From the NCBI RefSeq assembly GCF_016903815.1, contig NZ_CP069973.1: DNA of 64,000 bases; one strand, given 5' to 3'. Under the pieces are notes generated by a model. That model did not search any database. It saw nothing but the letters and a program-made list of their open reading frames with translations, and had not been told where the DNA came from. This stretch comes from Escherichia coli (lineage in GTDB: Bacteria; Pseudomonadota; Gammaproteobacteria; Enterobacterales; Enterobacteriaceae). The translations under genes were made by a program, and so were the position numbers. Each line of letters begins with the position of its first letter. The first letter of the stretch is position 1. Positions 3,141-54,768 of this stretch are shown here, in pieces.

Positions 3141-4655
3141 TCAGGCAACTGCCTGGCTGACTTTAGGCATCGCAAGGCTCAGTGCCTGACGCTCATCTGC
3201 CTGCTCGTGTAACAATTCACCGGCGATTTCACCTTCGCGCATCACCACAATCCGGTCGGCAACGCCGAGGACTTCAGGTAAGTCGCTGGAGGCAAACAGC
3301 ACCGCCACACCCTGCGCCGCCAGCGCATAAATTACGTTATATATTTCGTGCTTAGCGCCAACATCAATGCCGCGCGTAGGTTCATCCAGCAAAATGACCT
3401 TCATCTCTTCCGATAACCAGCGGCCCAGAATGGCTTTTTGCTGATTTCCGCCTGAGAGATTCATGATCAGTTGCTCAGCGCCCGGCGTTTTGATGTTAAG
3501 CGAACGAATGTGGTGATCGGCATTGTTTTCTTCCCAACCGTTGTTGATTACACAACCGCCGAGCACATGTTTACGTCTGGCACTGATGTTGATATTGTCG
3601 CGAACGGAGTGCACAGGAATAATGCCTTCGGCTTTGCGATCTTCCGGGCAGAGCATCATGCCTGCGGCAATGGCGTGGCTCGGTTTACGAATATCGATCG
3701 GCTGTTGGTCGATATAAACCTGACCGGCGGTAATTTGCGTACCGCCAAACATGCCTTTCATTAATTCGCTACGCCCTGCCCCGACCAGACCAAACAGACC
3801 GACAATTTCTCCACTGCGAACCGCCAGACTTATTGGCGTACGCACGCCTGGTGCTTTCACAGCATCAAGACGCAGGCGCTCCTCGCCATAACTACGCGGT
3901 TGCCAGCCGTAGATATCACCGATGTCGCGCCCGACCATCGCCTGCACCAGGGCGTCGTGGTCAACCTGCTGCATATCAGTAAAGGTTTTGACATAACGCC
4001 CATCTTTAAAGACGGTGATGGCATCGCTGAGGGCAAATATTTCTTCCATACGGTGAGAAACGTATAAGATCACCCGCCCCTCTTTTCGCAGTTCACGAAT
4101 AACGCGGAAAAGATTGTCGATTTCACGGGCAGAGAGGGAGCTGGTTGGCTCATCAAAGGCGATAATTTTGGCGTTACGCGCCAGCGCTTTGGCGATTTCA
4201 ACCATCTGCCACTGACCAATGGAGAGATATTTCAGCGGCGTGTCCGGGTCAATATCCATACCAAGATGTTTAAGTTGTAAACCCGCCTCATAATTCAGCA
4301 ATGAGCGATTCACAATGCCGCCTTTATGCGGCAGCTGGCCGAGATAGATGTTTTCCGCGACGGTCATTTCCGGCACGAGATGCAGTTCCTGGTAAATAAT
4401 CGCCACACCCGCGTTAAGTGCTGCGGTCGTGTCGGAAAAGGACATTTCCTGCCCATTAATCACTACAGAACCCGTGGTTGGCGCATAGTTGCCGCTGAGG
4501 ATTTTTAAGAGAGTTGATTTTCCTGCGCCATTTTCACCCATCAACGCATGAACCTGACCGGCATAGCAATCAAAACTAATATCCGTCAGCGCCTTAACGC
4601 CGGGAAACGTTTTACCGATGCCGCGAAATGAGAGATACGGGGTAGACTGTTGCAT
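3141..4655 (-). CDS. araG: L-arabinose ABC transporter ATP-binding protein AraG
   Basis: ORF 3141-4700(-); AraG begins [19 protein letters not shown]; two Walker A motifs ([16 protein letters not shown]). Confidence 0.92.
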
Positions 4656-29317: not shown

Positions 29318-29392
29318 ATCGTTGCCTCTCTATCACATAGATTTAACCCGCCCCCTCTCCTATTCTTTTCAGTGTGACCTCAGGAGGTTTCT

Positions 29393-29819
29393 ATGTGTGG
29401 ACGCTTTGCCCAATCCCAAACGCGTGAAGATTACCTTGCGCTTCTCGCGGAAGATATTGAACGCGATATTCCCTACGATCCCGAACCTATTGGCAGATAC
29501 AACGTCGCGCCGGGAACCAAAGTCCTTCTGCTCAGTGAACGTGATGAACACCTTCATCTGGATCCGGTTTTCTGGGGATATGCTCCCGGATGGTGGGATA
29601 AACCGCCGCTGATTAACGCCCGCGTAGAAACTGCCGCAACCAGTCACATGTTTAAACCGCTCTGGCAACATGGTCGGGCAATCTGTTTTGCCGATGGCTG
29701 GTTTGAGTGGAAAAAAGAAGGCGACAAAAAGCAGCCTTATTTTATCTATCGTGCTGATGGACAAGCTGTTTTTATAGCCGCGATAGGTAGCACACCGTTT
29801 GAGCGTGGTGACGAAGCCG
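29393..29819 (+). pseudogene. yedK: yedK (SRAP / abasic-site-processing protein) truncated after about codon 142
   Basis: ORF 29393-29890 matches YedK MCGRFAQSQTREDYLALLAEDIERDIPYDPEPIGRYNVAPGTK...IGSTPFERGDEA, then diverges into an unrelated 23-codon tail at the IS-remnant junction; full-length YedK is about 222 aa as I recall. Confidence 0.8.
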
Positions 29820-30101
29820 GAAGAAGTTTTTGTAAGCCCGCTCAGGGTCTTTCAGTGACTGTTGCAATGGCTGTGAGGGCGAATCTTTAAGCCATTGCGT
29901 TTCAGTGGCATTTTTCCACTCAACCAACCAGGAAGCCATTTTCCCGTAAGGGATGTATTTATTACCGGCCTCATGATTCTCATTCTGAAGCGCCAGAGCA
30001 CGATTGAAAACGAAACGACATGCGCCTGCGAAGCGCCTCATTTCACGCTCCTGTTGACCACCTGGTCTTAACCGGAATTTGAATGCCTGTAGTCGTTTCA
30101 T
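29820..30101 (-). pseudogene. tnpB: tnpB N-terminal fragment (IS605 OrfB / TnpB-family)
   Basis: Only about 95 N-terminal residues are recognisable; RuvC-like and zinc-finger regions are absent. Confidence 0.7.
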
Positions 30102-30123
30102 GGGCCAAATCATACTTTGGCCT

Positions 30124-30481
30124 ATGAAAAAAGAAACCGATATCCGACGCGGAAGGCATTGTGTTTTCCTGAAGCATGTTCACCTAGTCTTCGTTACTAA
30201 ATACCGACGTCAGATTTTTGACCATGACGCGACAGAAAAACTACGCACTTACTTTTCAAATGTATGTGCTGATTTTGAAGCTGAACGGGTTGAAATGGAT
30301 GGCGGACCAGATCACGTCCATTTGTTAATTAACTATCCTCCCAAACTGGCGATATCCAGTCTGGTAAACAGCCTCAAAGGCGTATCGAGTAGGTTACTGC
30401 GACGAGATCGACCAGATATTGCAGTCAGGTATTACGACAAAGGCGTTTTGTGGAGTCCTGGCTATTTTGTCAGTAGCTGCA
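30124..30481 (+). pseudogene. tnpA: tnpA (IS200-type Y1 transposase), probably C-terminally truncated
   Basis: HUH motif HVHLL and a tyrosine in GYF are present; the C-terminal tail after VSSC is unrelated to the family; truncation is inferred from recalled family sequences. Confidence 0.6.
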
Positions 30482-30804
30482 TCTTAACGTATCAACTAGA
30501 TTTAATAACAACGATATCCGTACCTAACCGGATATCTAATGTCATAAGCATCCCTTTAATTATCCCCTCAACCTCTTGTAACTTTCCCACTCTTGAGCTC
30601 CACATAGTCCAAACGCCGGATGCAAAAAAATCACACGTGCATTTCTGAAATTGTGATGGAGGAAGATAGTATCAATTATATGTGCTTAGAAACGTCCCCG
30701 ATTAGCGCAGAAGTCACCGGATTGTTCAGACTCAAATAGGTTGAGTATGCCGTATTTATTTTCCAAAATAAAAATCGATGCTGTTGCTCCTTCATAAAAT
30801 ACTT

Positions 30805-31602
30805 TTACTCTCTGGACGCTTTTCTTAGCTCTCTTGGTGTTATCTTAAAACGATTATGGAACCTTTCAGTAAAACGAGAAGGACACTTGTAACCATTTTC
30901 CCTGGCAATCTCGCTGATGGGTTTTACTGTCGTTTGTATAGCAGACAACGCATTATTTAACCTCACGTCGTCCAATATACTTTGAAAACTTACTCCCTCG
31001 CTTGCCAGACGGCGATGCAATGTGGAAACAGAAATGTAGAGATATCTCGCTACCTTGTTTGCTGTCCATTTTGTTCCAGGTTCGGATAGCATTAGGTTAT
31101 AACAACGACTTATTAATGATTGTTTACTATCTGATAAAAGTAAACAATTAACATGATGTGCTCCTAATGAAAGTAGAACGCCCATTGCTAAGTGTTCCTG
31201 AATTTGCGTTGAGAAGCCTCGGGAAATAGATGTTTTTAGTTGCTCCCAACAATATATTAACTCGGGGTTCTGAGGTAAGCAGAAACCTGTCGTGTTACGA
31301 ATTTGATCAGTTATCGCATAAAATTTTTGAAACTTTTCAATTAGATCAATGGGATAATAAAGCATTTCTGCAAGATAAAGACCTGCTTCTGGATAATTCG
31401 CAATATAAAATTCATATCCACAGGGAAATAATATTATCTGATTATTATCAACAGTTAGACTATGCGTCTCCCAATTGATAACTTTTTTTCCCTGACGGAT
31501 ACGACATAAAGCTGGCATAAGAGGCTTAACCCTGTGAATCTCATGATGTTTATGCATCCGTATTTCTTCAATCTTTAGGTTAGTCTTATCTTTTGCCAGC
31601 AT
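30805..31602 (-). CDS. ybcM: AraC-family transcriptional regulator (YbcM-like)
   Basis: ORF 265 aa with a C-terminal AraC-type HTH ([40 protein letters not shown]); resembles the YbcM of the K-12 DLP12 prophage as I recall it. Confidence 0.75.
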
Positions 31603-31611
31603 ACTCTTACC

Positions 31612-32163
31612 CTACTTTATCTCATAAACTGGTGTTATCTCAGCGGTTGCAATTTTATTGGCATTAAGCATATAACCAACTAACGCTCCGCTGGAATTAG
31701 AATCCACAGGAATTTTATCAGTTTTTAGAGCCCATACTTTAAACTGGTAATGATGGGGTTTATCTCCTTTGGGAGGACATGCTCCACCAAATCCTGCATA
31801 ACCAAAATCATTTCGGCCTTGAACAGCACCAGTCGGAAGTTTTGTACCATCACGTCTTCCTGCATCAGCGGGCAAATATGTTACAGTTGCTGGAATATTA
31901 GCAACAGTCCAGTGCCACCATCCACTGCCTGTAGGAGCATCTGGATCATACACAGTTACGGCAAAGCTTTTGGTGCCTTCAGGAGCACCAGACCAGGTTA
32001 ATGAGGGCGATGTATTACCACCTTCACACCCAAATCCAGAAAATACATGAGACGTTGTAAGTTGCTCTCCTGTTTTTATTTCATTACTAGTGACCTGAAA
32101 TGCTGCGGCCTGCGCAGAAAATGTTATGAATGCCAATACACTTGAAACGATAAGTTTTTTCAT
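31612..32163 (-). CDS. ybcL: PEBP/UPF0098-family periplasmic protein (YbcL-like)
   Basis: ORF 183 aa with signal peptide MKKLIVSSVLAFITFSAQA and PEBP motifs (DPDAP, GYAGFGGACPPKGDKPHHYQF). Confidence 0.8.
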   Translation of the reverse strand: MKKLIVSSVLAFITFSAQAAAFQVTSNEIKTGEQLTTSHVFSGFGCEGGNTSPSLTWSGAPEGTKSFAVTVYDPDAPTGSGWWHWTVANIPATVTYLPADAGRRDGTKLPTGAVQGRNDFGYAGFGGACPPKGDKPHHYQFKVWALKTDKIPVDSNSSGALVGYMLNANKIATAEITPVYEIK

Positions 32164-32331
32164 AAAAACCTCATTGTTGTGACCTATCGTTATTTTATTT
32201 GATGTGCCTTGATCTCATTATGCATAAAGGCGCAATGATCGCGCAAATGCAATCATAATTATAAAGGTGCCCCGAACATTAGCCATAATATGCACAAATC
32301 AGATTCCTGTTATCTCAAGGATAATTATTTT

Positions 32332-32664
32332 TTAATGCGGTGCACTTCGTGACAACAAGTTAATGACTAACACACCGGCACAAATCAACATCATGCCTAT
32401 GATAGCTGGCAGGTCCAGTCGTTGACCAAAAAATCCCCAGGAAAGCAAACTAATCAGAACGATACCGACGCCTGACCAGATAGCATAAGCAATCCCTGTA
32501 GGTATATAAGCCAGCGTCTGAGCTAATAACCAGAATGATGCACAATAGCAAATAATTGTGCCAACAGAGGGCCATAACCGTGTAAACCCCTCTGAAAACT
32601 TCATTAAGGTTGTACCAATGACCTCTGCAAGTATTGCGCCACCAAGATAAATATAAGGGTTCAT
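32332..32664 (-). CDS. emrE: Small multidrug resistance (SMR) efflux protein EmrE
   Basis: ORF 32332-32844(-); protein from MNPYIYLGGAILAEVIGTTLMKFSEGFTRLWPSVG is 110 aa and near-identical to EmrE, including the conserved Glu14. Confidence 0.88.
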   Translation of the reverse strand: MNPYIYLGGAILAEVIGTTLMKFSEGFTRLWPSVGTIICYCASFWLLAQTLAYIPTGIAYAIWSGVGIVLISLLSWGFFGQRLDLPAIIGMMLICAGVLVINLLSRSAPH

Positions 32665-33536: not shown

Positions 33537-36861
<3,325 letters not shown>

Positions 36862-36862
<1 letters not shown>

Positions 36863-38235
36863 TGACCACGCGCCTGACTCGCTGGCTAACCACGCTGGAT
36901 AACTTTGAAGCCAAAATGGCGCAGTTGCCTGCGGTACGTCGCTACGGGCGATTAACCCGCGCTACCGGGCTGGTGCTGGAAGCCACCGGATTACAATTGC
37001 CGCTCGGCGCAACCTGTGTCATTGAGCGCCAGAACGGCAGCGAAACGCACGAAGTAGAAAGCGAAGTCGTCGGCTTTAACGGTCAACGGCTGTTTTTAAT
37101 GCCGCTGGAGGAAGTGGAAGGTGTCCTGCCCGGCGCGCGTGTATATGCCAAAAACATTTCGGCAGAAGGGCTGCAAAGCGGCAAGCAGTTGCCGCTCGGT
37201 CCGGCGTTATTAGGTCGTGTTCTGGACGGCAGCGGTAAACCGCTCGATGGCCTCCCCTCCCCCGATACGACGGAAACCGGTGCGCTGATTACCCCGCCAT
37301 TTAACCCATTGCAACGTACACCGATTGAACATGTGCTGGACACCGGCGTGCGCCCAATCAATGCCCTGCTTACCGTCGGGCGCGGGCAGCGTATGGGGCT
37401 GTTTGCCGGGTCCGGCGTTGGTAAAAGTGTGCTGCTGGGGATGATGGCCCGTTACACCCGCGCCGATGTCATTGTCGTGGGTTTGATTGGTGAACGAGGG
37501 CGCGAAGTAAAAGATTTTATTGAGAATATTCTCGGTGCCGAAGGACGTGCACGCTCCGTGGTGATTGCCGCTCCGGCGGATGTTTCTCCGCTCCTGCGAA
37601 TGCAGGGTGCCGCCTATGCCACGCGCATTGCCGAAGATTTTCGCGATCGTGGTCAGCATGTGTTGCTGATTATGGACTCCCTCACCCGCTACGCGATGGC
37701 CCAGCGTGAAATTGCGCTGGCGATTGGCGAACCACCCGCCACCAAAGGTTATCCACCGTCGGTGTTTGCCAAATTACCGGCACTGGTCGAGCGTGCCGGA
37801 AATGGCATTAGCGGCGGCGGCTCGATTACCGCGTTTTATACCGTGCTCACCGAGGGCGATGACCAGCAGGACCCCATTGCCGACTCCGCGCGGGCCATCC
37901 TCGACGGTCACATTGTGCTGTCTCGCCGACTGGCGGAAGCCGGGCACTATCCGGCTATCGATATTGAAGCGTCGATCAGCCGCGCAATGACGGCGTTGAT
38001 CAGCGAGCAACATTATGCGCGAGTGCGCACCTTCAAACAGCTGTTGTCGAGTTTTCAGCGTAACCGCGATCTGGTTAGCGTCGGTGCGTATGCCAAAGGC
38101 AGCGATCCGATGCTCGATAAAGCCATCGCCCTGTGGCCGCAGCTGGAGGGCTATTTACAACAAGGCATTTTTGAACGCGCGGACTGGGAAGCGTCTCTCC
38201 AGGGGCTGGAGCGTATTTTCCCGACAGTGTCATAA
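36862..38235 (+). CDS. fliI: Flagellum-specific ATPase FliI
   Basis: ORF 457 aa with Walker [12 protein letters not shown]. Confidence 0.95.
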
Positions 38236-38253
38236 CCCAGGAGATAACGGCAG

Positions 38254-38697
38254 ATGGCAGAACATGGTGCGCTGGCGACCCTGAAAGATCTGGCAGAAAA
38301 AGAGGTAGAGGATGCCGCGCGCCTGCTGGGTGAAATGCGTCGCGGATGTCAGCAGGCGGAAGAACAGCTCAAAATGCTGATCGATTATCAGAATGAATAT
38401 CGCAATAACCTCAATAGCGATATGAGTGCCGGGATGACCAGCAACCGCTGGATCAACTATCAGCAGTTTATCCAGACGCTGGAAAAAGCCATTACTCAGC
38501 ATCGCCAGCAACTTAATCAGTGGACGCAGAAAGTTGACATTGCCCTGAACAGCTGGCGAGAAAAGAAACAACGTTTGCAGGCCTGGCAGACACTGCAGGA
38601 ACGGCAATCCACGGCGGCACTGCTTGCAGAAAACCGCCTCGATCAGAAAAAGATGGATGAGTTCGCCCAGCGCGCCGCCATGAGGAAACCTGAATGA
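38254..38697 (+). CDS. fliJ: Flagellar export chaperone FliJ
   Basis: ORF 147 aa [34 protein letters not shown]. Confidence 0.93.
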
Positions 38698-39821
38698 TTC
38701 GCATAGCGCCCTTGATTACCGCTGACGTTGATAACGCCACATTGCCTGGCGGCAAAGCCAGCGATGCTGCACAAGATTTTCTCGCGTTGTTGAGCGAAGC
38801 ATTAACAGGTGAGGCAACAACCGACAAAGCGACTCCCCAGTTGCTGGTGGCAACAGATAAGCCCACGGCAAAAGGCGAGCCGCTGGTCAGCGATATTCTT
38901 TCAGACGCGCAACAAGCAGATTTACTGATCCCTGTGGATGAAACACCGCCTGTCATCAACGACGAACAATCCACATTAACACCGTTAACCACCGCTCAGA
39001 CGATAACGTTGGCTGCGGCGGCTGACAACAATACGGCAAAAGACGAAAAAGCGGATGATCTGAATGAAGACGTCACCGCAAGCCTGAGTGCCCTTTTTGC
39101 GATGTTGCCGGGTTTTGACAATACGCCCAAAGTGACTGATGCACCGTCAACCGTGTTACCGACAGAGAAACCAACGCTTTTCACAAAACTGACTTCTGCG
39201 CAACTCACTACAGCACAGCCTGATGACGGCCCCGGCACGCCAGCTCAGCCATTAACAGCGCTGGTAGCAGAAGCCCAGAGTAAAGCGGAAGTCATCAGCA
39301 CACCTTCACCGGTGACCGCTGCCGCCAGCCCGCTAATCACTCCACACCAGACACAGCCACTGCCCACCGTCGCCGCGCCTGTCTTGAGTGCACCGCTGGG
39401 TTCTCACGAATGGCAACAATCATTAAGCCAGCATATTTCGCTGTTCACCCGCCAGGGGCAACAAAGTGCAGAGTTGCGTCTGCAGCCACAGGATTTAGGT
39501 GAAGTGCAAATCTCCCTCAAAGTGGATGATAACCAGGCGCAAATCCAGATGGTTTCGCCGCATCAGCACGTACGCGCCGCCCTGGAAGCAGCGCTGCCGG
39601 TACTTCGTACGCAGCTGGCCGAAAGTGGCATTCAGTTAGGGCAAAGCAACATCAGTGGCGAAAGCTTTAGTGGCCAGCAGCAGGCCGCTTCCCAGCAACA
39701 GCAAAGCCAACGCACAGCAAACCATGAACCTCTGGCGGGGGAAGACGACGATACGCTTCCGGTTCCCGTCTCTTTACAAGGGCGTGTAACAGGCAACAGC
39801 GGCGTTGATATTTTCGCCTAA
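38694..39821 (+). CDS. fliK: Flagellar hook-length control protein FliK
   Basis: ORF 375 aa [24 protein letters not shown], Pro/Thr/Gln-rich. Confidence 0.93.
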
Positions 39822-39925
39822 CGTCAGAGGTAGCACCGTAATCCGCGTCTTTTCCCCGCTTTGTTGCGCTCAAGACGCAGGATAATTAGCCGATAAGCAG
39901 TAGCGACACAGGAAGACCGCAACAC

Positions 39926-40390
39926 ATGACTGATTACGCGATAAGCAAGAAAAGCAAGCGATCGCTTTGGATCCCGATTCTGGTATTCATTACCCTCGCG
40001 GCCTGTGCCAGCGCAGGTTACAGCTACTGGCATTCGCATCAGGTTGCCGCTGACGACAAAGCGCAGCAACGCGTCGTGCCCTCCCCGGTCTTCTATGCGC
40101 TGGATACCTTTACGGTCAATCTGGGCGATGCGGATCGCGTGCTTTATATCGGCATAACCCTGCGACTGAAAGATGAAGCAACCCGCTCGCGGCTGAGTGA
40201 GTATTTGCCGGAAGTCCGTAGTCGCTTGCTGTTACTGTTTTCGCGTCAGGATGCTGCCGTACTGGCGACAGAAGAAGGCAAGAAAAACCTGATTGCCGAG
40301 ATTAAAACCACACTTTCCACCCCGCTTGTTGCCGGGCAACCGAAACAGGATGTCACCGACGTGCTGTATACCGCTTTTATTCTGCGATAA
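39926..40390 (+). CDS. fliL: Flagellar basal body-associated protein FliL
   Basis: ORF 154 aa [32 protein letters not shown]. Confidence 0.93.
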
Positions 40391-40394
40391 CGAC

Positions 40395-41399
40395 ATGGGC
40401 GATAGTATTCTTTCTCAAGCTGAAATTGATGCGCTGTTGAATGGTGACAGCGAAGTCAAAGACGAACCGACAGCCAGTGTTAGCGGCGAAAGTGACATTC
40501 GTCCGTACGATCCGAATACCCAACGACGGGTTGTGCGCGAACGTTTGCAGGCGCTGGAAATCATTAATGAGCGCTTTGCCCGCCATTTTCGTATGGGGCT
40601 GTTCAACCTGCTGCGCCGTAGCCCGGATATTACCGTCGGGGCCATCCGCATTCAGCCGTACCATGAATTTGCCCGCAACCTGCCGGTGCCGACCAACCTG
40701 AACCTTATCCATCTGAAACCGCTGCGCGGCACAGGGCTGGTGGTGTTCTCACCGAGTCTGGTGTTTATCGCCGTGGATAACCTGTTTGGCGGCGATGGAC
40801 GCTTCCCGACCAAAGTGGAAGGCCGCGAGTTTACCCATACAGAACAGCGCGTCATCAATCGCATGTTAAAGCTGGCGCTTGAAGGCTATAGCGACGCCTG
40901 GAAGGCGATTAATCCGCTGGAAGTTGAGTACGTGCGTTCGGAAATGCAGGTGAAATTTACCAATATCACCACCTCGCCGAACGACATTGTGGTTAACACG
41001 CCGTTCCATGTGGAGATTGGCAACCTGACCGGCGAATTTAATATCTGCCTGCCATTCAGCATGATCGAGCCGCTACGGGAATTGTTGGTTAACCCGCCGC
41101 TGGAAAACTCGCGTAATGAAGATCAGAACTGGCGCGATAACCTGGTGCGCCAGGTGCAGCATTCACAGCTCGAGCTGGTCGCCAACTTTGCCGATATATC
41201 GCTACGCCTGTCGCAGATTTTAAAACTGAAACCCGGCGACGTCCTGCCGATAGAAAAACCCGACCGCATCATCGCCCATGTTGACGGCGTCCCGGTGCTG
41301 ACCAGTCAGTACGGCACACTCAACGGTCAATATGCGTTACGGATAGAACATTTGATTAACCCGATTTTAAATTCTCTGAACGAGGAACAGCCCAAATGA
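40395..41399 (+). CDS. fliM: Flagellar motor switch protein FliM
   Basis: ORF 40293-41399; FliM begins MGDSILSQAEIDALLNGDSEVKDEPT. Confidence 0.93.
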   Translation: MGDSILSQAEIDALLNGDSEVKDEPTASVSGESDIRPYDPNTQRRVVRERLQALEIINERFARHFRMGLFNLLRRSPDITVGAIRIQPYHEFARNLPVPTNLNLIHLKPLRGTGLVVFSPSLVFIAVDNLFGGDGRFPTKVEGREFTHTEQRVINRMLKLALEGYSDAWKAINPLEVEYVRSEMQVKFTNITTSPNDIVVNTPFHVEIGNLTGEFNICLPFSMIEPLRELLVNPPLENSRNEDQNWRDNLVRQVQHSQLELVANFADISLRLSQILKLKPGDVLPIEKPDRIIAHVDGVPVLTSQYGTLNGQYALRIEHLINPILNSLNEEQPK

Positions 41400-41809
41400 G
41401 TGACATGAATAATCCGGCCGATGACAACAACGGCGCAATGGACGATCTGTGGGCTGAAGCGTTGAGCGAACAAAAATCAACCAGTAGCAAAAGCGCTGCC
41501 GACGCGGTGTTCCAGCAATTTGGCGGTGGTGATGTCAGCGGAACGTTGCAGGATATCGACCTGATTATGGATATTCCGGTCAAGCTGACCGTCGAACTGG
41601 GCCGCACACGAATGACCATCAAAGAGTTATTGCGTCTGACGCAAGGGTCCGTCGTGGCGCTGGACGGTCTGGCGGGCGAACCGCTGGATATTCTGATCAA
41701 CGGTTATTTAATTGCTCAGGGCGAAGTTGTCGTAGTCGCTGATAAATATGGCGTGCGGATCACCGATATCATTACTCCGTCTGAGCGGATGCGCCGCCTG
41801 AGCCGTTAG
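41396..41809 (+). CDS. fliN: Flagellar motor switch protein FliN
   Basis: ORF 137 aa MSDMNNPADDNNGAMDDLWAEALSEQK. Confidence 0.93.
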   Translation: MSDMNNPADDNNGAMDDLWAEALSEQKSTSSKSAADAVFQQFGGGDVSGTLQDIDLIMDIPVKLTVELGRTRMTIKELLRLTQGSVVALDGLAGEPLDILINGYLIAQGEVVVVADKYGVRITDIITPSERMRRLSR

Positions 41810-41811
41810 TG

Positions 41812-42177
41812 ATGAATAACCACGCTACTGTGCAATCTTCTGCGCCGGTTTCTGCTGCGCCACTGCTGCAGGTGAGCGGCGCACTCATCGCCATTATTGC
41901 CCTGATCCTCGCTGCTGCCTGGCTGGTAAAACGGCTGGGATTTGCCCCTAAACGCACTGGCGTTAACGGTCTGAAAATTAGCGCCAGTGCTTCACTGGGC
42001 GCGCGTGAACGGGTTGTGGTGGTCGATGTGGAAGATGCACGGCTGGTGCTCGGCGTTACCGCAGGGCAAATCAATCTGCTGCATAAACTTCCCCCTTCAG
42101 CACCAACGGAAGAGATACCGCAGACCGATTTTCAGTCGGTTATGAAAAACTTGCTTAAGCGTAGCGGGAGATCCTGA
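41812..42177 (+). CDS. fliO: Flagellar biosynthesis protein FliO
   Basis: ORF 41809-42177; FliO begins [43 protein letters not shown]. Confidence 0.9.
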
Positions 42178-44276: not shown

Positions 44277-44900
44277 ATGTCAACGATTATTATGGATTTA
44301 TGTAGTTACACCCGACTAGGTTTAACCGGGTATCTGTTGAGTAGAGGGGTTAAAAAAAGAGAAATCAACGACATTGAAACCGTTGATGACCTTGCCATAG
44401 CTTGTGATTCACAGCGCCCTTCAGTGGTGTTTATTAATGAGGACTGTTTCATCCACGATGCTTCTAACAGTCAGCGTATCAAGTTCATCATTAATCAACA
44501 TCCCAATACGTTATTTATCGTTTTTATGGCAATTGCCAATGTTCATTTTGATGAATATCTATTGGTCAGAAAAAATTTATTGATCAGTTCTAAATCGATT
44601 AAACCGGAATCTCTCGACGATATCCTTGGCGATATTCTGAAAAAAGAGACAACGATAACCTCGTTTTTAAATATGCCGACGTTATCATTGAGCCGAACCG
44701 AATCGAGTATGTTGCGAATGTGGATGGCAGGTCAGGGAACCATTCAAATCTCTGACCAAATGAATATCAAAGCCAAGACCGTTTCATCGCATAAAGGTAA
44801 TATTAAACGTAAGATCAAAACGCATAATAAACAGGTTATCTACCATGTCGTCCGACTGACGGATAATGTGACTAATGGTATTTTTGTCAACATGCGCTAA
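44277..44900 (+). CDS. rcsA: Capsule synthesis regulator RcsA (LuxR-family)
   Basis: ORF 207 aa [44 protein letters not shown]. Confidence 0.93.
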
Positions 44901-44943
44901 CACATTCTGACTGGTGGTTTCCCACCAGTCAGGCCGAATTAGA

Positions 44944-45222
<279 letters not shown>

Positions 45223-45294
45223 CTATACTTAAGAGATGCCAGGCGGACTTAACGACTGGCCGCAACAACAGAGTAACGGTTGCGAGGAAAGATG

Positions 45295-45522
45295 ATGAAA
45301 ACCGCAAAAGAGTACAGCGATACCGCAAAACGTGAGGTCAGCGTCGATGTCGATGCCCTGCTGGCGGCGATCAATGAAATTAGCGAAAGCGAAGTTCATC
45401 GCAGCCAGAACGATTCTGAACACGTTAGCGTCGATGGACGTGAATATCATACATGGCGTGAATTGGCGGATGCCTTCGAACTGGATATTCATGACTTCAG
45501 CGTCTCTGAAGTGAATCGTTGA
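45295..45522 (+). CDS. yodD: Stress-induced small protein YodD
   Basis: ORF 45280-45522; YodD begins MKTAKEYSDTAKREVSVDVDALLAAINEISESEVHRSQ. Confidence 0.88.
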   Translation: MKTAKEYSDTAKREVSVDVDALLAAINEISESEVHRSQNDSEHVSVDGREYHTWRELADAFELDIHDFSVSEVNR

Positions 45523-45534
45523 ATGCACAATAAA

Positions 45535-45622
45535 AAAATCCCGACCCTGAGGGGGTCGGGATGAAACTTGCTTAAGCAAGAAGCACTTAAAAAATTCGTT
45601 ACACCAGGAAATCTGATGTGTT
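45535..45622 (-). ncRNA. dsrA: Small regulatory RNA DsrA (Hfq-dependent; activates rpoS translation, represses hns)
   Basis: Reverse complement reads AACACATCAGATTTCCTGGTGTAACGAATTTTTTAAGTGCTTCTTGCTTAAGCAAGTTTCATCCCGACCCCCTCAGGGTCGGGATTT, including the terminator hairpin. Confidence 0.92.
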
Positions 45623-48824: not shown

Positions 48825-49742
48825 TTAATGTGCCTGACCGCGTATTTTCGCTACGGCTTTCACTCCCAGCACCACGATGCCGCCGATGATAAATCCAAGA
48901 ATCAGATTTAAAACAGTCGGTAATATCATCGCCACCACTGCACTTTGCTGCCCGGCGAAATGTTCAATGGCGTGATGCAGCGGCGCAATTCCATGTACCA
49001 CAATCCCACCGCCGACGAGGAACATCGCCAGCGTGCCGACAATCGATAACGCCTTCATCAACCAGGGCGCAATGATCAATAACCCTTTACCTAATGCCTG
49101 CATCAGCGCGCTGGATTTTTCCGCCAGCCAATACCCCAGGTCATCAATCTTAACGATAACCCCTACCAGACCGTAGACGCCCACGGTCACTACCAGCGCG
49201 ATGCCTGAAAGCACCAGCACCTGATTAAGCAACGGCGCTTCGGCCACAATCCCCAGCGTGATGGCGACGATTTCCGCAGACAATATAAAATCGGTACGAA
49301 TCGCCCCTTTTATTTTGTCTTTTTCAAACTTCAGCGGATCCTGCGCCGCCAGCTTCTCCAGACGCTGCTGACTCTGCGCCGGATCTTCTTTATGTTTACG
49401 CGCCTCCAGCATATGCAGCACTTTCTCTACCCCTTCAAAGCAGAGAAACGCGCCGCCAATCATCAACAGTGGCGTAATCGCCCACGGGATAAACGCACTG
49501 ATGATCAGCGCCAGCGGCACCAGAATCACTTTATTGATCAGCGATCCTTTCGCCACGCCCCAGACCACGGGAAGTTCCCGGTTGGCGCGCACGCCTGAAA
49601 CTTGTTGCGCATTGAGCGATAAGTCATCCCCTAATACACCGGCGGTTTTCTTCGCCGCCAGTTTGCCCATCACGGAGATATCGTCCAGCAGTGTGGCGAT
49701 ATCATCGAGCAACGTCAGTAAACTACTCCCGGCCAAAAGCAT
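48825..49742 (-). CDS. yedI: DUF808 inner-membrane protein YedI
   Basis: ORF 305 aa [47 protein letters not shown]. Confidence 0.88.
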
Positions 49743-49914
49743 TCCCTCTCATTTTTATTGTTGAAGGGTGTAAGTATGAAGCAAAAACGGCAGCTCTGAT
49801 ACTTGCTTCACAGGTCAACATTTATTTAACAATCAAGTGCAATTATATCTCTCGCCAGCAGAATGATTTTCACGTTTACTATGAACCACCTTTTTATTTC
49901 AGCCGTGAGGGATT

Positions 49915-50835
49915 ATGCGTTTCCGCCAGTTGTTACCGCTTTTTGGCGCGCTGTTTGCGTTGTATATCATTTGGGGCTCAACCTATTTTGTCATTCGGAT
50001 TGGCGTGGAAAGCTGGCCTCCGTTAATGATGGCGGGCGTTCGATTCCTGGCAGCCGGTATTTTATTGCTGGCATTTTTGCTACTGCGCGGACACAAACTT
50101 CCCCCGCTACGTCCGCTGCTCAATGCCGCGCTGATTGGCCTGTTATTGCTGGCTGTCGGTAATGGCATGGTGACGGTTGCCGAACATCAAAATGTTCCTT
50201 CCGGCATCGCCGCCGTTGTGGTTGCAACCGTGCCCCTCTTTACCCTGTGCTTCAGCCGCCTGTTTGGCATTAAAACGCGCAAACTGGAATGGGTGGGTAT
50301 CGCCATTGGGCTTGCCGGAATCATCATGCTCAATAGCGGTGGAAATTTAAGCGGCAATCCGTGGGGCGCGATTCTGATTTTAATCGGCTCGATTAGCTGG
50401 GCGTTTGGCTCGGTTTATGGCTCGCGCATTACCTTACCTGTAGGGATGATGGCGGGTGCGATTGAGATGCTGGCGGCTGGCGTGGTGTTAATGATTGCGT
50501 CGATGATTGCGGGTGAAAAACTGACGGCGCTCCCTTCCCTTTCAGGCTTCCTTGCGGTCGGCTATCTGGCGCTGTTTGGTTCGATTATCGCCATTAACGC
50601 TTATATGTATTTAATCCGCAACGTCAGTCCGGCTCTCGCCACCAGCTACGCCTACGTTAACCCAGTGGTCGCGGTCTTGCTGGGTACGGGGCTGGGTGGC
50701 GAAACGCTGTCGAAGATTGAATGGCTGGCGCTCGGCGTAATTGTTTTCGCGGTGGTACTGGTCACGTTGGGAAAATATCTCTTCCCGGCCAAACCCGTTG
50801 TCGCGCCAGTTATTCCGGATGCATCAAGCGAGTAA
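49915..50835 (+). CDS. yedA: EamA/DMT-family transporter YedA
   Basis: ORF 306 aa MRFRQLLPLFGALFALYIIWGSTYFVIRIG. Confidence 0.9.
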   Translation: MRFRQLLPLFGALFALYIIWGSTYFVIRIGVESWPPLMMAGVRFLAAGILLLAFLLLRGHKLPPLRPLLNAALIGLLLLAVGNGMVTVAEHQNVPSGIAAVVVATVPLFTLCFSRLFGIKTRKLEWVGIAIGLAGIIMLNSGGNLSGNPWGAILILIGSISWAFGSVYGSRITLPVGMMAGAIEMLAAGVVLMIASMIAGEKLTALPSLSGFLAVGYLALFGSIIAINAYMYLIRNVSPALATSYAYVNPVVAVLLGTGLGGETLSKIEWLALGVIVFAVVLVTLGKYLFPAKPVVAPVIPDASSE

Positions 50836-51294
50836 ATGAATCCCCTGCGTGTCGATCTGCGCGCTGGCACCTTCGCCGCAGATCCACTCTTCCAGACGCT
50901 CGGTAAGCGCCGCATCCGTCAGCTTCTCGCGCCCGCGTAACGCACATTCCCAGACAATCAATACGCGCCAACCGAGTTCCTGCAAATGGCTGATATCACG
51001 ACGATCGCGCTCGACATTTTTACCTATCTTCTCCAGCCAAAAATCTGTTCGCGTGGCGGGGACTTTAAACAGGTAGCAATGGTGATGGTGCCAGAAGCAA
51101 CCGTGGGCAAATATCACACAGCGAAATTCATCAAGGACAAAATCCGGGCGTCCGGGCAGACTGGCGTCCTGAACGCGAAACGCCAGGCCCTGCCCAGTTA
51201 ACAAACTGGCGAGGCGCTTCTCAATCGCCGTATCACGCGTGGCAATCGCGCGCATATTTTTGCTGCGGGTGGCCTTATCGTGAACGTCGACCAT
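50824..51294 (-). CDS. vsr: Very-short-patch repair endonuclease Vsr
   Basis: ORF 50824-51456(-); Vsr-like region begins M(V)[30 protein letters not shown]; 5' end overlaps the 3' end of dcm. Confidence 0.9.
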
Positions 51295-52693
51295 GTTGTG
51301 CCTCTTGCTGACGCAACGCCACCGCCTGTTTGATTTTTGGCTCAAGCAGTTTTGCCACCGCGGCAAAGACCGGCACGACCACCGAGTTACCGAACTGGCG
51401 ATAAGCCTGAGTGTCCGAAACCGGAATGCGGAATTTCGCTTCTCCCGGCGCTTCAAAACCCATTAAGCGCGCACATTCCCGAGGCGTTAACCGACGTGGG
51501 CGATGTTGCTGATTCAGCGGATCGTCAAAGTCTTTCTCACCCGTTGCCATATCCCAGCCGCGATCGATTAAAATTTCCGCGCCATCTTTGTAATAACGCG
51601 CAGACAGCGTACGCGTGACGCTTTGCGGATTGTTCGGATAAACCATTCCATAACCGAAGCCGTTACCGCGCGCCTGATGTTTTTTCGCATATCGATAGAG
51701 GTACTTCCACAGTACCGGCGTCAGGATATATTTCGCCTCGACCATCGGGTCCAGCAGCTGCGCCAGCGTCACTCGCTGTGCAGGGAAACATTTGCTGATA
51801 TCACGCAGAGTAAAATCGGCTTTCAGATTCAGATCGCGACGAAAACCCACCAGCACGATGCGTTCACGGTGCTGCGGCAGAAAATGTTTGCCGTCGATGA
51901 TTTTCGGATCGTCCGGCCCGTTATCTTCTGCATCAGCCACGTCATAGCCCAGTTCGTCCAGCGTCTGCATGATGATGCGGAACGTTTTACCCTGGTCGTG
52001 ACTTTTCAGGTTTTTGACGTTTTCGAGCACAAACATCGCCGGACGACGCGCGTCGATAATGCGCACCACATCAAAGAACAGCGTGCCCTGGGTATCGCAG
52101 GCAAAACCGTGCGCCCGCCCGAGCGAGTTCTTTTTCGATACGCCAGCCAGCGAAAATGGCTGACAAGGGAAACCGGCCAGTAAAACATCGTGTTCAGGAA
52201 TGTGTTGACGAATATGTTCCGCCGCCGCCTCATCACTCACGCCTTCTTGATGGCTGAGGGTGATGTCGCGGATATCCTCATTAAAATGATGCGTCGCCGG
52301 GTCGCAATAATGGTTGGCTTTATAAGTGCGTACCGCATGTTTGTTCCATTCGCTGGTAAACACGCACTGTCCACCAATCGATTCAAAACCGCGACGGATG
52401 CCGCCAATTCCGGCAAATAGATCGATAAAGCGAAACGCATAATGCGGATGATGTGCCGGTGGTTTGGGTAACAACGTTTGCAGATGGGCGAACTCTTTCT
52501 CACTTAAACGGTGCCATGCCGAGTCATTCGCCAGCGCACGTTTTAAAATTGCCGCGCTCCAGTGATTCTCACCCACACCATTAAGCTGCGCCACCAGCGT
52601 TTTAACATCATAAATTTGCAGCAGTTTCTCCAGCATTGCCTGTGCGGCATTCCCGGTGCTGTATGAATCGGTTACTGATATATTTTCCTGCAT
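51275..52693 (-). CDS. dcm: DNA-cytosine C5 methyltransferase Dcm (CCWGG)
   Basis: ORF 472 aa [33 protein letters not shown] with FxGxGG (DLFAGIGG), PCQ and ENV motifs. Confidence 0.95.
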
Positions 52694-52759
52694 AGATTTA
52701 ACCGGCCATCTGAGATGGCCGACAGGTTAACATAATTACTGCCGTTTAGGGCCACGCGC

Positions 52760-53197
52760 TCAGCCAGCAGGTGAAAACGCATCTATCACCTTGTGATCGA
52801 TACCTTCATTCTCCCCCGCCAGTTCGGCACCGAGCTTCGCCATAAACTCGACTAAAAATTGCGCGTTGTGCTGTGCCAGCTGCTTGCCTCTTGCGGTTTG
52901 CATGGTTTGCGGTAATTTCAGTAACTTTGTCTGGAAATGATCCAGCGCGTAGCGTTTATCATCAAGCGGGCGATGCTGTGCGAACGGATCTTCGCCATCA
53001 AACAGCGCCAAGCCCAATGCCCCTGAAACGGCAAATACGCGCGCCAGGCCAATCGCCCCCAGGGCTTCCAGCCGATCCGCATCCTGGACGATTTTAGCTT
53101 CCGTTGTTAAGGGGGCGATTTGCGCGCTGAAACTGTGAGCGGCAATGGCATGACAAACGGCCTCAATTTTCTCCGCCGGAAATTGCACGAACTCTTC
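52760..53197 (-). pseudogene. yedJ: yedJ (HD-domain phosphohydrolase) lacking its 5' end, which is replaced by IS1
   Basis: Reading frame (E)[25 protein letters not shown]... runs up to the IS1 end at 53198; roughly 85 N-terminal codons are absent (length from memory). Confidence 0.8.
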
Positions 53198-53252
53198 GGT
53201 AATGCTGCCAACTTACTGATTTAGTGTATGATGGTGATTTTAAGGTGCTTGC

Positions 53253-53528
53253 GTGGCTTCCATTTCCATCAGATGTCCTTCCTGCTCCGCTACTGAAGGC
53301 GTGGTGCGTAACGGCAAAAGCACTGCCGGACATCAGCGCTATCTCTGCTCTCATTGCCGTAAAACATGGCAACTACAGTTCACTTACACCGCCTCTCAGC
53401 CCGGTAAGCACCAGAAAATCATTGATATGGCCATGAATGGCGTCGGATGTCACGCCAGTGCACGCATTATGGGCGTTGGCCTCAACACGGTTTTACGTCA
53501 CTTAAAAAACTCAGGCCGCAGTCGGTAA
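53253..53528 (+). CDS. insA: IS1 InsA
   Basis: ORF 91 aa [66 protein letters not shown]. Confidence 0.95.
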
Positions 53529-53950
53529 CCTCGCGCATACAACCGGGCAGTGATGTGATTGTCTGCGCTGAAATGGACGAACAGTGGGGCTACGTCGGTG
53601 CTAAATCACGTCAGCGCTGGCTGTTTTACGCGTATGACAGGATACGGAGGACGGTTGTGGCGCACGTCTTCGGTGAACGCACTCTGGCCACACTGGAGCG
53701 TCTTCTGAGCCTGCTGTCGGCCTTTGAGGTCGTGGTATGGATGACGGATGGCTGGCCGCTGTATGAATCACGCCTGAAGGGAAAGCTGCACGTTATCAGC
53801 AAGCGTTACACTCAGCGCATTGAGCGACATAATCTGAATCTGAGACAACATCTGGCAAGGCTGGGACGGAAGTCACTGTCGTTCTCAAAATCGGTGGAGC
53901 TGCATGACAAGGTCATCGGGCATTATCTGAACATAAAACACTATCAGTAA
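53447..53950 (+). CDS. insB: IS1 InsB (expressed as InsAB' fusion by -1 frameshift)
   Basis: ORF 167 aa ...[110 protein letters not shown]. Confidence 0.93.
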
Positions 53951-53965
53951 GTTGGAGTCATTACC

Positions 53966-54694
53966 CCAAAACCGTATCGCGGTAAACATAAAATTCTGGT
54001 GATCGCCGCGGACGAACGTTATTTGCCGACCGATAACGGAAAACTGTTCTCGACCGGTAACCATCCGATTGAAACGTTGCTGCCGTTGTATCATCTCCAT
54101 GCTGCAGGTTTCGAATTCGAAGTGGCGACCATTTCCGGTCTGATGACCAAGTTTGAATACTGGGCTATGCCGCACAAAGATGAAAAAGTAATGCCATTCT
54201 TTGAGCAGCATAAATCGTTGTTCCGCAATCCGAAAAAACTCGCGGATGTTGTCGTCAGCCTCAACGCAGACAGCGAATATGCAGCAATCTTTGTTCCTGG
54301 TGGTCATGGCGCACTTATTAGTTTACCAGAAAGCCAGGACGTGGCTGCTGCTTTGCAGTGGGCAATCAAAAATGACCGTTTTGTTATCTCCCTTTGCCAC
54401 GGCCCGGCGGCTTTTCTGGCGCTTCGCCACGGCGATAACCCACTGAATGGTTATTCCATTTGCGCATTCCCAGACGCCGCAGACAAACAAACGCCAGAGA
54501 TAGGCTATATGCCGGGTCATCTCACCTGGTACTTCGGCGAAGAGCTGAAGAAAATGGGCATGAACATTATTAATGACGACATCACCGGGCGAGTACATAA
54601 GGACCGTAAAGTTCTCACCGGCGACAGTCCTTTCGCAGCGAATGCGTTGGGTAAACTGGCGGCGCAGGAAATGCTGGCAGCTTATGCGGGTTAA
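53966..54694 (+). pseudogene. hchA: hchA (Hsp31 glyoxalase/chaperone) lacking its first ~41 codons and native promoter
   Basis: Frame resumes at PKPYRGKHKILVIAADERYLPTDNGKLFSTGNHPIE... directly after the IS1 right end; the remainder is colinear with HchA to the stop. Confidence 0.85.
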
Positions 54695-54730: not shown

Positions 54731-54768
54731 GCAGCCACGTTAATACTCACGACGTGGCTGCGTTTTTT
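54731..54768 (+). terminator. Rho-independent terminator after hchA
   Basis: gcagccacgt...acgtggctgc hairpin followed by tttttt. Confidence 0.65.

Follow-up and report, generated by a model that had tools for sequence, protein, structure and literature searches.

The window, by which we mean the whole 64,000-nucleotide stretch of Escherichia coli DNA analysed here, carries a 768-bp IS1 element (53198-53965, plus strand) that directly adjoins codons 42-283 of hchA together with their native stop codon (53966-54694, plus strand), as read from the sequence and with the coordinates checked. The element is intact: its length and ends are those of the IS1 family (approximately 768 bp, with inverted repeats of approximately 23 bp), it is bounded by the terminal inverted repeats GGTAATGCTGCCAACTTACTGAT and GGTAATGACTCCAACTTACTGAT, which agree at 20 of their outermost 23 positions. 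It also has both coding frames of the family, namely insA (53253-53528, plus strand, 91 aa, with the Pfam domains Zn_ribbon_InsA and HTH_Tnp_IS1) and insB', the DDE transposase part (53447-53950, plus strand; Pfam DDE_Tnp_IS1, 1.3e-74), which is reached through a -1 frameshift at the A6C motif (53504-53510). RefSeq labels it 'IS1 family transposase, programmed frameshift', and it is on one database record, which names it 'IS1-like element IS1F family', that we call it IS1F-like. On its left lies the 3' part of yedJ (52760-53197, minus strand), a gene for an HD-domain phosphohydrolase whose N-terminus has been deleted, as seen in the list of open reading frames, in Pfam and RefSeq, and in an alignment with the intact locus of strain CAVP879 (L003). 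Its Pfam HD domain is matched at profile positions 75-115 only, and RefSeq describes it as 'HD domain-containing protein, incomplete, missing N-terminus'. On the right, between the convergent genes hchA and hprS, the sequence reads as a hairpin, GCAGCCACG...CGTGGCTGC, followed by a run of six T (54731-54768, plus strand), which is likely a terminator and whose loop is too long for our scan to list. Finally, a 140-aa mechanical open reading frame runs antisense (53885-54307, minus strand), overlapping the hchA remnant and ending within the right end of IS1; we presume it to have arisen by chance.

The insB frame closes with TAA (53948-53950), which is followed by the last 15 bp of the element, a part of its right inverted repeat (GTTGGAGTCATTACC, 53951-53965, plus strand), and the hchA remnant then opens with CCA AAA CCG (Pro42-Lys-Pro) at 53966 and runs to its native stop at 54692-54694. 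Since positions 53447, 53948, 53966 and 53999 all leave a remainder of 2 on division by 3, insB and the remnant lie in one reading frame; here coordinates and arithmetic agree with the earlier note on this DNA, which had placed hchA in the frame of insB with the insB stop and 15 bp of IS1 end between them. Translation of 53447-54694 accordingly reads InsB...HYQ*VGVITPKPYRGKHKILV..., with that single stop, and five sense codons and one stop codon separate insB from the remnant. The first in-frame start-type codon of the remnant is a GTG at 53999, the native Val53, and the 231-aa reading frame that begins there (53999-54694, plus strand), the longest that the mechanical list gives for the remnant, is not considered a gene.

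The remnant itself is clearly a piece of Hsp31. It aligns with residues 42-283 of the solved E. coli Hsp31 chains 1pv2, 1n57 and 1izy, it scores 453.8 bits against the NCBIfam profile NF003168 (glyoxalase III HchA; cut-off 365) over profile positions 43-286 of 287, and it reaches 31.5 against Pfam DJ-1_PfpI (cut-off 26.6). As the alignment begins at residue 42, 41 codons are missing, and RefSeq flags the remnant as a pseudogene, "hchA, incomplete, missing N-terminus". The frame is open throughout 53951-54694, and the catalytic triad is retained, with Cys185 at 54395-54397, His186 at 54398-54400 and Asp214 at 54482-54484, as are Glu77 and His155. In particular, the Cys185 and His186 codons of the CHGPAAF motif (54395-54400, plus strand) are in place, and the claim that the DJ-1/PfpI catalytic region survives is thereby borne out. 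What the protein would lack can be judged from its relatives. In the Vibrio cholerae homologue, which is 59% identical, the segments P1 (residues 1-32), P2 and P3 together make up the P domain, which serves as lid and dimer interface, supplies the triad Asp and is joined to the core by a linker (PMC5325305). Class I Hsp31 proteins dimerise through this domain, which holds the triad Asp, and the active-site cavities of E. coli Hsp31 are lined by Tyr29, Ser31 and Asp35 (PMC5325305), all three of them among the residues missing from the remnant. By analogy with the Vibrio cholerae homologue, the absence of residues 1-41, or of residues 1-52 if translation were to start at GTG53, removes the P1 segment, and the remnant does not have the complete P domain (P1 segment) and linker that mark class I. 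What is more, the chaperone activity of Hsp31 needs intact termini, while class III members of the family function without a P domain (PMC5325305).

The deletion between yedJ and hchA

The 9-bp sequences that flank the element, GAACTCTTC and CCAAAACCG, are unrelated, so that no 8-9-bp target-site duplication is present, and what stands to the left of IS1 is the minus-strand 3' part of yedJ and not hchA. The two flanks are non-contiguous in intact relatives: in CAVP879 they map to positions 4001 and 7001 of L003, which leaves 2,999 bp missing from the window. We take the porin gene that lies in this interval to be yedS of K-12. According to the annotation of L003, the missing DNA of approximately 3.0 kb comprises the 5' end of yedJ, drpB, the porin gene and the promoter, ribosome-binding site and codons 1-41 of hchA. 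Because there is no target duplication and because some 3 kb are missing, the junction is that of a deletion and not of a simple insertion, and it is for this reason that the IS1 stands without a duplication. An element that is retained between such flanks is what an adjacent deletion leaves. The same alignment to the intact locus upholds the earlier note's statement that the native start and promoter of hchA are missing, as the promoter and 41 codons are gone; in other words, the remnant has none of the promoter, ribosome-binding site and start codon that a functional gene would have as its own, all three having been within the deleted 3 kb. As a side observation, the dcm-yedJ side of the locus (window 49198-53197) is 92-95% identical to CAVP879, whereas the hchA-hprS side is 99.8% identical; given this step in identity, an allele boundary coincides with the site of the deletion.

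A second deletion is nested with the first. In strain OkiPb01691, the same left junction of yedJ' and IS1 is found, the whole hchA remnant is deleted, and the right junction lies at 54760/54761 of the window; namely, its IS1 (L002 9499-10266) is joined at the right end to window position 54761, which falls within the hairpin that separates hchA from hprS. The two deletions thus share one fixed IS1 junction, as nested adjacent deletions do, and this pattern, the signature of adjacent deletion, favours a deletion driven by the transposase. As OkiPb01691 lives without the remnant, the remnant is dispensable.

Spread and divergence of the truncated haplotype

The identical 2.1-kb arrangement is found in 447 of the 5,426 complete E. 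coli genomes searched, the 80-bp right junction in 432 and the left junction in 463, so that the codon-42 junction is present in approximately 8% of complete genomes; 554 genomes lack the promoter and 5' part of hchA. In a literature search for the sequence types of the carriers, ST410 gave nothing, and 50579417 alone could be tied to one, ST405 (PMC6046176). An intact copy of hchA elsewhere, a possibility that the earlier note had named, did not come to light: neither another hchA nor any stretch of the deleted DNA is found in the window, and hchA occupies a single place in each of the 60 carriers listed as having a remnant of 100% identity. The further claim that the strain otherwise lacks Hsp31 holds on this evidence, provided it is limited to Hsp31 itself and not extended to glyoxalase activity overall. 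Namely, the GloA/GloB pathway, which depends on glutathione and is the main one, and the paralogues of DJ-1 are encoded elsewhere.

The carriers do not form one uniform background, and the idea that they belong to one clone was rejected upon comparing their flanks. Over the 14.1-kb locus, strain 7/2 matches the window at 100% identity, and elsewhere the two are collinear save for one IS200C insertion; both yedJ and hchA of 7/2 are, in RefSeq, 'incomplete; missing N-terminus' pseudogenes. That insertion, of approximately 0.7 kb between yodD and yedP (L004 ~44832-45531; window ~45532-45541), is not in the window, and the two sequences are otherwise 99.996-100% identical. NT1N25 is at least 99.97% identical to the window over 30 kb. 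Its IS1 (L006 19233-20000) differs from that of the window at 53358, 53407, 53452, 53536, 53584 and 53752, differences that may reflect gene conversion between IS1 copies. In contrast, E2865 (L007) and L73 (L008) are approximately 99.9% identical to the window only within ~42-58 kb, and left of ~42 kb, over the fliF-fliN genes (~34000-42000), they are 97-98% identical. This suggests that homologous recombination carried the truncated haplotype from one background to another, or else that its flanks were replaced later. Two more regions of the window deserve mention in their own right. Between yedF and fliE (window ~29390-32660; strain 7/2, L004 28682-31953), a truncated gene for an SOS-response-associated peptidase, a fragment of a helix-turn-helix gene, an IS200/IS605 tnpA and ybcM-ybcL-emrE make up what looks like a prophage-remnant island. 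Also, the alignments of the window to L73, CAVP879 and BL21(DE3) break at ~60033-60256, the position of yodB (cytochrome b), which lies between zinT and a tRNA-Ser gene in those three strains and is not annotated there in strain 7/2.

Within the truncated haplotype, the remnant has acquired the substitutions A138V, G160S, L133I and S262T, that is, four nonsynonymous changes and no synonymous one. A138V is found in all carriers examined, and L133I and S262T in E2865, while G160S is shared by the window, 7/2 and NT1N25 and missing from L73 and E2865, so that it arose after the truncation. A138V may predate the truncation: a 111-bp test for this variant finds 417 genomes at up to one mismatch, fewer than the number of carriers, though a few intact alleles may carry it as well. 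In deep comparisons of hchA alleles, the ratios of synonymous to nonsynonymous changes are 18:5 and 10:4, from which the haplotype's 0:4 differs with Fisher p = 0.007 and 0.023, respectively, and under neutrality four nonsynonymous changes out of four would be seen with a probability of 0.36. The pattern, at n = 4, fits relaxed constraint. No stop or frameshift interrupts the remnant in any carrier examined, and the haplotype, being at least 99.8% identical, looks young.

The codon-42 junction is one of several IS1 events in hchA. An IS1-associated deletion of 41 kb between uvrY and hchA has been published for E. coli B (PMC3032704), and we could confirm its uvrY'-IS1A-'hchA junction in BL21(DE3) (L005 20421-21188); it is present in 86 complete genomes. 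AR_0104 carries a junction of fliR, IS1 and 'hchA at codon 25, in phase 1 (L009 19273-20040), and isolate 12 (L010 4236-5003) and LCP22S3_I2 (L011 4281-5048) have simple IS1 insertions, at codons 102 and 117, flanked by duplications of 8 bp and 9 bp. With junctions at codons 25, 42 and 69 and insertions at codons 102 and 117, there are at least five independent IS1 events in hchA among complete E. coli genomes. Strain 2020S05-235 (hit H191) is a candidate for a further case. In addition, an IS5 insertion between yedS and hchA has been reported for one of two sequenced K-12 genomes. Is this recurrence more than accidental? One could argue that the 5' half of hchA is a hot spot for IS1, or that loss of Hsp31 (or of yedJ-drpB-porin) is favoured in some lineages, or both, given at least five events, the varied chromosomal backgrounds and a presence in approximately 8% of genomes, including the multidrug-resistant ST405 clone; we consider this reading doubtful at best. 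All the events found have IS1 in one orientation relative to hchA, but a bias in orientation was rejected as evidence: the junction queries could detect this orientation only, and therefore no orientation bias can be claimed.

Prospects for expression of the remnant

Could the remnant be transcribed at all? Left of IS1, yedJ', dcm and vsr all lie on the opposite strand, and consequently no host transcription enters the remnant from that side. A scan for consensus promoters returned the known left-end promoter of IS1 (53205-53232) and, within insB, the promoter-like hexamers GTTACA-17-CATAAT (53805-53833, plus strand), which match at 9 of 12 positions and point toward hchA. Apart from read-through from the left-end promoter, this insB site is the sole candidate for outward transcription. 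It may be specific to the IS1F-like variant, as IS1A has other bases at these hexamers. The region as a whole has three promoter-like sites as against 1.8 expected in shuffled sequences, a count that is not above chance. The insB site and left-end read-through could yield some transcript over the remnant. At the junction itself, the scan listed no promoter; the best pair that spans it, TTGGAG-17-TATCGC, matches at 6 of 12 positions and is without the final T of the -10 hexamer. IS1 fusion promoters can activate neighbouring genes but need a well-spaced -10 in the flank (PMC9330008), and the combination of a -35 in the end of the element with a -10 in the flank at a spacing of 16-18 bp is not found here.

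The prospects for translation are similar. Pairing with the anti-Shine-Dalgarno sequence amounts to -6.2 kcal/mol at the native start (AAGGA), to -3.0 kcal/mol at GTG53 for its best duplex, at a spacing of 11 nt, and to between -2.3 and -0.9 at ATG101, ATG109 and ATG117. All internal starts up to Leu126 (GTG53, these three ATGs and the TTGs) are at -3.2 kcal/mol or weaker, and TTG171, which alone reaches -5.0, is located after His155. An RNA element in the locus was also considered and rejected, as Rfam gives no match there at E <= 0.1. In view of all this, we infer that the hchA remnant is not expressed. The earlier note had likewise judged expression from IS1 and an internal start to be unlikely, and the lack of a junction promoter and of a good internal ribosome-binding site argues the same way.

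Would this conclusion be different if transcription did come out of IS1, be it through left-end read-through or from 53805-53833, and if translation then began at GTG53 or at an internal ATG? In such a case, a truncated DJ-1/PfpI core with residual or new activity would be made, which we regard as very improbable. While the open frame (53951-54694) and the preserved Cys185, His186, Asp214, Glu77 and His155 would permit it, no start that spares the active-site residues is preceded by a convincing Shine-Dalgarno sequence, and with Val53 as the start the protein would lose part of KILVIAAD, presumably the opening strand of the core sheet. Likewise, the outward 9/12 site in insB has to be set against a promoter-like count that stays at the level of the shuffles (3 versus 1.8). 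Fusion promoters of IS1 that activate neighbouring genes are documented in the account of PMC9330008, which cites Prentki 1986, and class III proteins are active without a P domain, yet a class I protein such as Hsp31 dimerises through that domain, the site of the triad Asp (PMC5325305). Moreover, neither the haplotype's four nonsynonymous and no synonymous changes nor the complete deletion of the remnant in OkiPb01691 is in line with a product that the cell would use.

The shared frame of insB and hchA is a matter of chance and not a fusion or a regulatory arrangement. The prior for such a match is 1 in 3, and the two other independent junctions of IS1 with hchA, at codon 69 in phase 2 in E. 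coli B and at codon 25 in phase 1 in AR_0104, are both out of frame with insB. With these two in the other two phases, and one of three junctions in frame, the match is no more than chance would give. One might still imagine an InsAB'-Hsp31 fusion protein that arises by read-through of the insB TAA, insB and the remnant sharing their frame and being parted by no more than one stop codon and five sense codons. However, the InsAB' protein of IS1 is itself made only through a rare -1 frameshift, and so two rare events would be needed, the insA-insB frameshift and suppression of TAA, which is an efficient stop and is accompanied here by no evident read-through signal. Together with the 1 in 3 prior and the two out-of-frame junctions, this makes such a fusion extremely improbable.

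Origin of the junction and comparison with known systems

It is our belief, and one we hold with considerable confidence, that the hchA remnant is a non-functional, 5'-truncated pseudogene that results from an IS1-associated deletion, that its frame match with insB is coincidental, and that no Hsp31 is made from it. The most likely mechanism, as far as this step can be inferred, is intramolecular replicative transposition of IS1 ('adjacent deletion'), in which the element and one old junction are kept and one new junction is formed without target duplication. Such an event would have removed the ~3.0 kb between the 3' remnant of yedJ and codon 42 of hchA. Having neither its own promoter nor a translation start, the hchA remnant would since have evolved neutrally, and cells with the deletion haplotype would, judging from their sequence, make no Hsp31. 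A class of IS1 deletions in which the element stays behind and direct repeats are lacking has been described (PMC9330008).

The same end could have been reached by homologous recombination between two directly repeated copies of IS1, one in yedJ and one in hchA, a route that we deem possible but rather unlikely. It gives an identical end state, with one IS1, no target duplication and flanks from two distant sites (PMC9330008), and hchA is a repeated target of IS1, as attested by two other genomes with a simple insertion, at codon 102 or 117, and an 8-9-bp duplication; yet among the 5,426 complete genomes there is no IS1 with a target duplication at either breakpoint. Namely, a synthetic query that joined the right end of IS1, the GAACTCTTC duplication and yedJ matched 0 genomes, and one that joined hchA, the CCAAAACCG duplication and the left end of IS1 returned no exact case and two unrelated IS1 insertions deeper in hchA. 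What is more, the IS1 of OkiPb01691 made its further deletion from the right end with the left junction fixed, which also speaks against recombination and for adjacent deletion. An ancestral simple insertion was thus not found among these genomes, and the transposase-driven route is the more probable one. Finally, one could attribute the junction to the assembly, that is, to a collapse or mis-join at a repeated IS1: IS1 is a multicopy element, found at 4-18 places in each carrier genome listed, and such repeats can cause mis-joins. But the identical junction recurs in over 430 genomes that were finished independently, by many laboratories and from many hosts and countries, and the probability of such an artefact is, in our opinion, negligible.

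In short, the remnant is a real and ordinary feature that RefSeq already lists as a pseudogene, and a literature search found no published report of the codon-42 truncation. Beyond the earlier note, it is now clear that the junction is that of a deletion, that yedJ is truncated as well, that the arrangement is fixed in approximately 8% of complete genomes, and that it has a published parallel in E. coli B. As a textbook deletion scar of an insertion sequence and a known RefSeq pseudogene, the locus is of little mechanistic interest. Its practical meaning lies elsewhere. Namely, natural nulls for hchA, yedJ, drpB and the porin gene make up approximately 8% of finished E. coli genomes, ST405 clinical isolates among them, and the E. 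coli B laboratory strains are natural nulls likewise; this matters when phenotypes under methylglyoxal, glycation, heat or acid stress are to be read. In particular, the loss of hchA is relevant wherever carrier strains serve as hosts in studies of Hsp31, and the junction of IS1 and hchA is a handy lineage marker.

How does the locus compare with known systems? Compared with intact class I Hsp31/HchA (1pv2, 1n57, 1izy), the remnant is approximately 98% identical over residues 42-283 and keeps the triad and the neighbouring conserved residues, but it is without residues 1-41 and without any expression signals. With IS fusion promoters, such as those formed by IS1 upstream of blaTEM-1, blaTEM-6 and acrEF (PMC9330008), it shares the geometry, the right end of IS1 facing a downstream frame; in contrast to these cases, no suitably spaced -10 follows (the best pair matches at 6/12), and unlike the genes so activated, the hchA remnant has no ribosome-binding site and start codon of its own. 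The adjacent deletions of IS1 described by Turlan and Chandler (1995), in the form in which PMC9330008 cites them, agree more fully: there, too, the element is retained, no direct repeats are present and the loss starts exactly at the end of the IS, and their nested further deletions with one fixed junction are matched here by OkiPb01691. As against that cited account, it is the end state from which the mechanism is deduced here, and searches turned up neither an intermediate nor an ancestral insertion.

The closest known case is the uvrY-hchA deletion of E. coli B. The two events are independent, the element being IS1A there and IS1F-like here. In E. coli B, the left end lies in uvrY and approximately 41 kb are lost, including fli genes, whereas here it lies in yedJ and approximately 3 kb are lost; the breakpoint in hchA is at codon 69, in phase 2 and out of frame with insB, as against codon 42, in phase 0, in the window. 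What the laboratory strains BL21 and REL606 have in common with the window is an IS1 in the same orientation, with no target duplication, followed by a 5'-truncated hchA that RefSeq flags 'missing N-terminus'.
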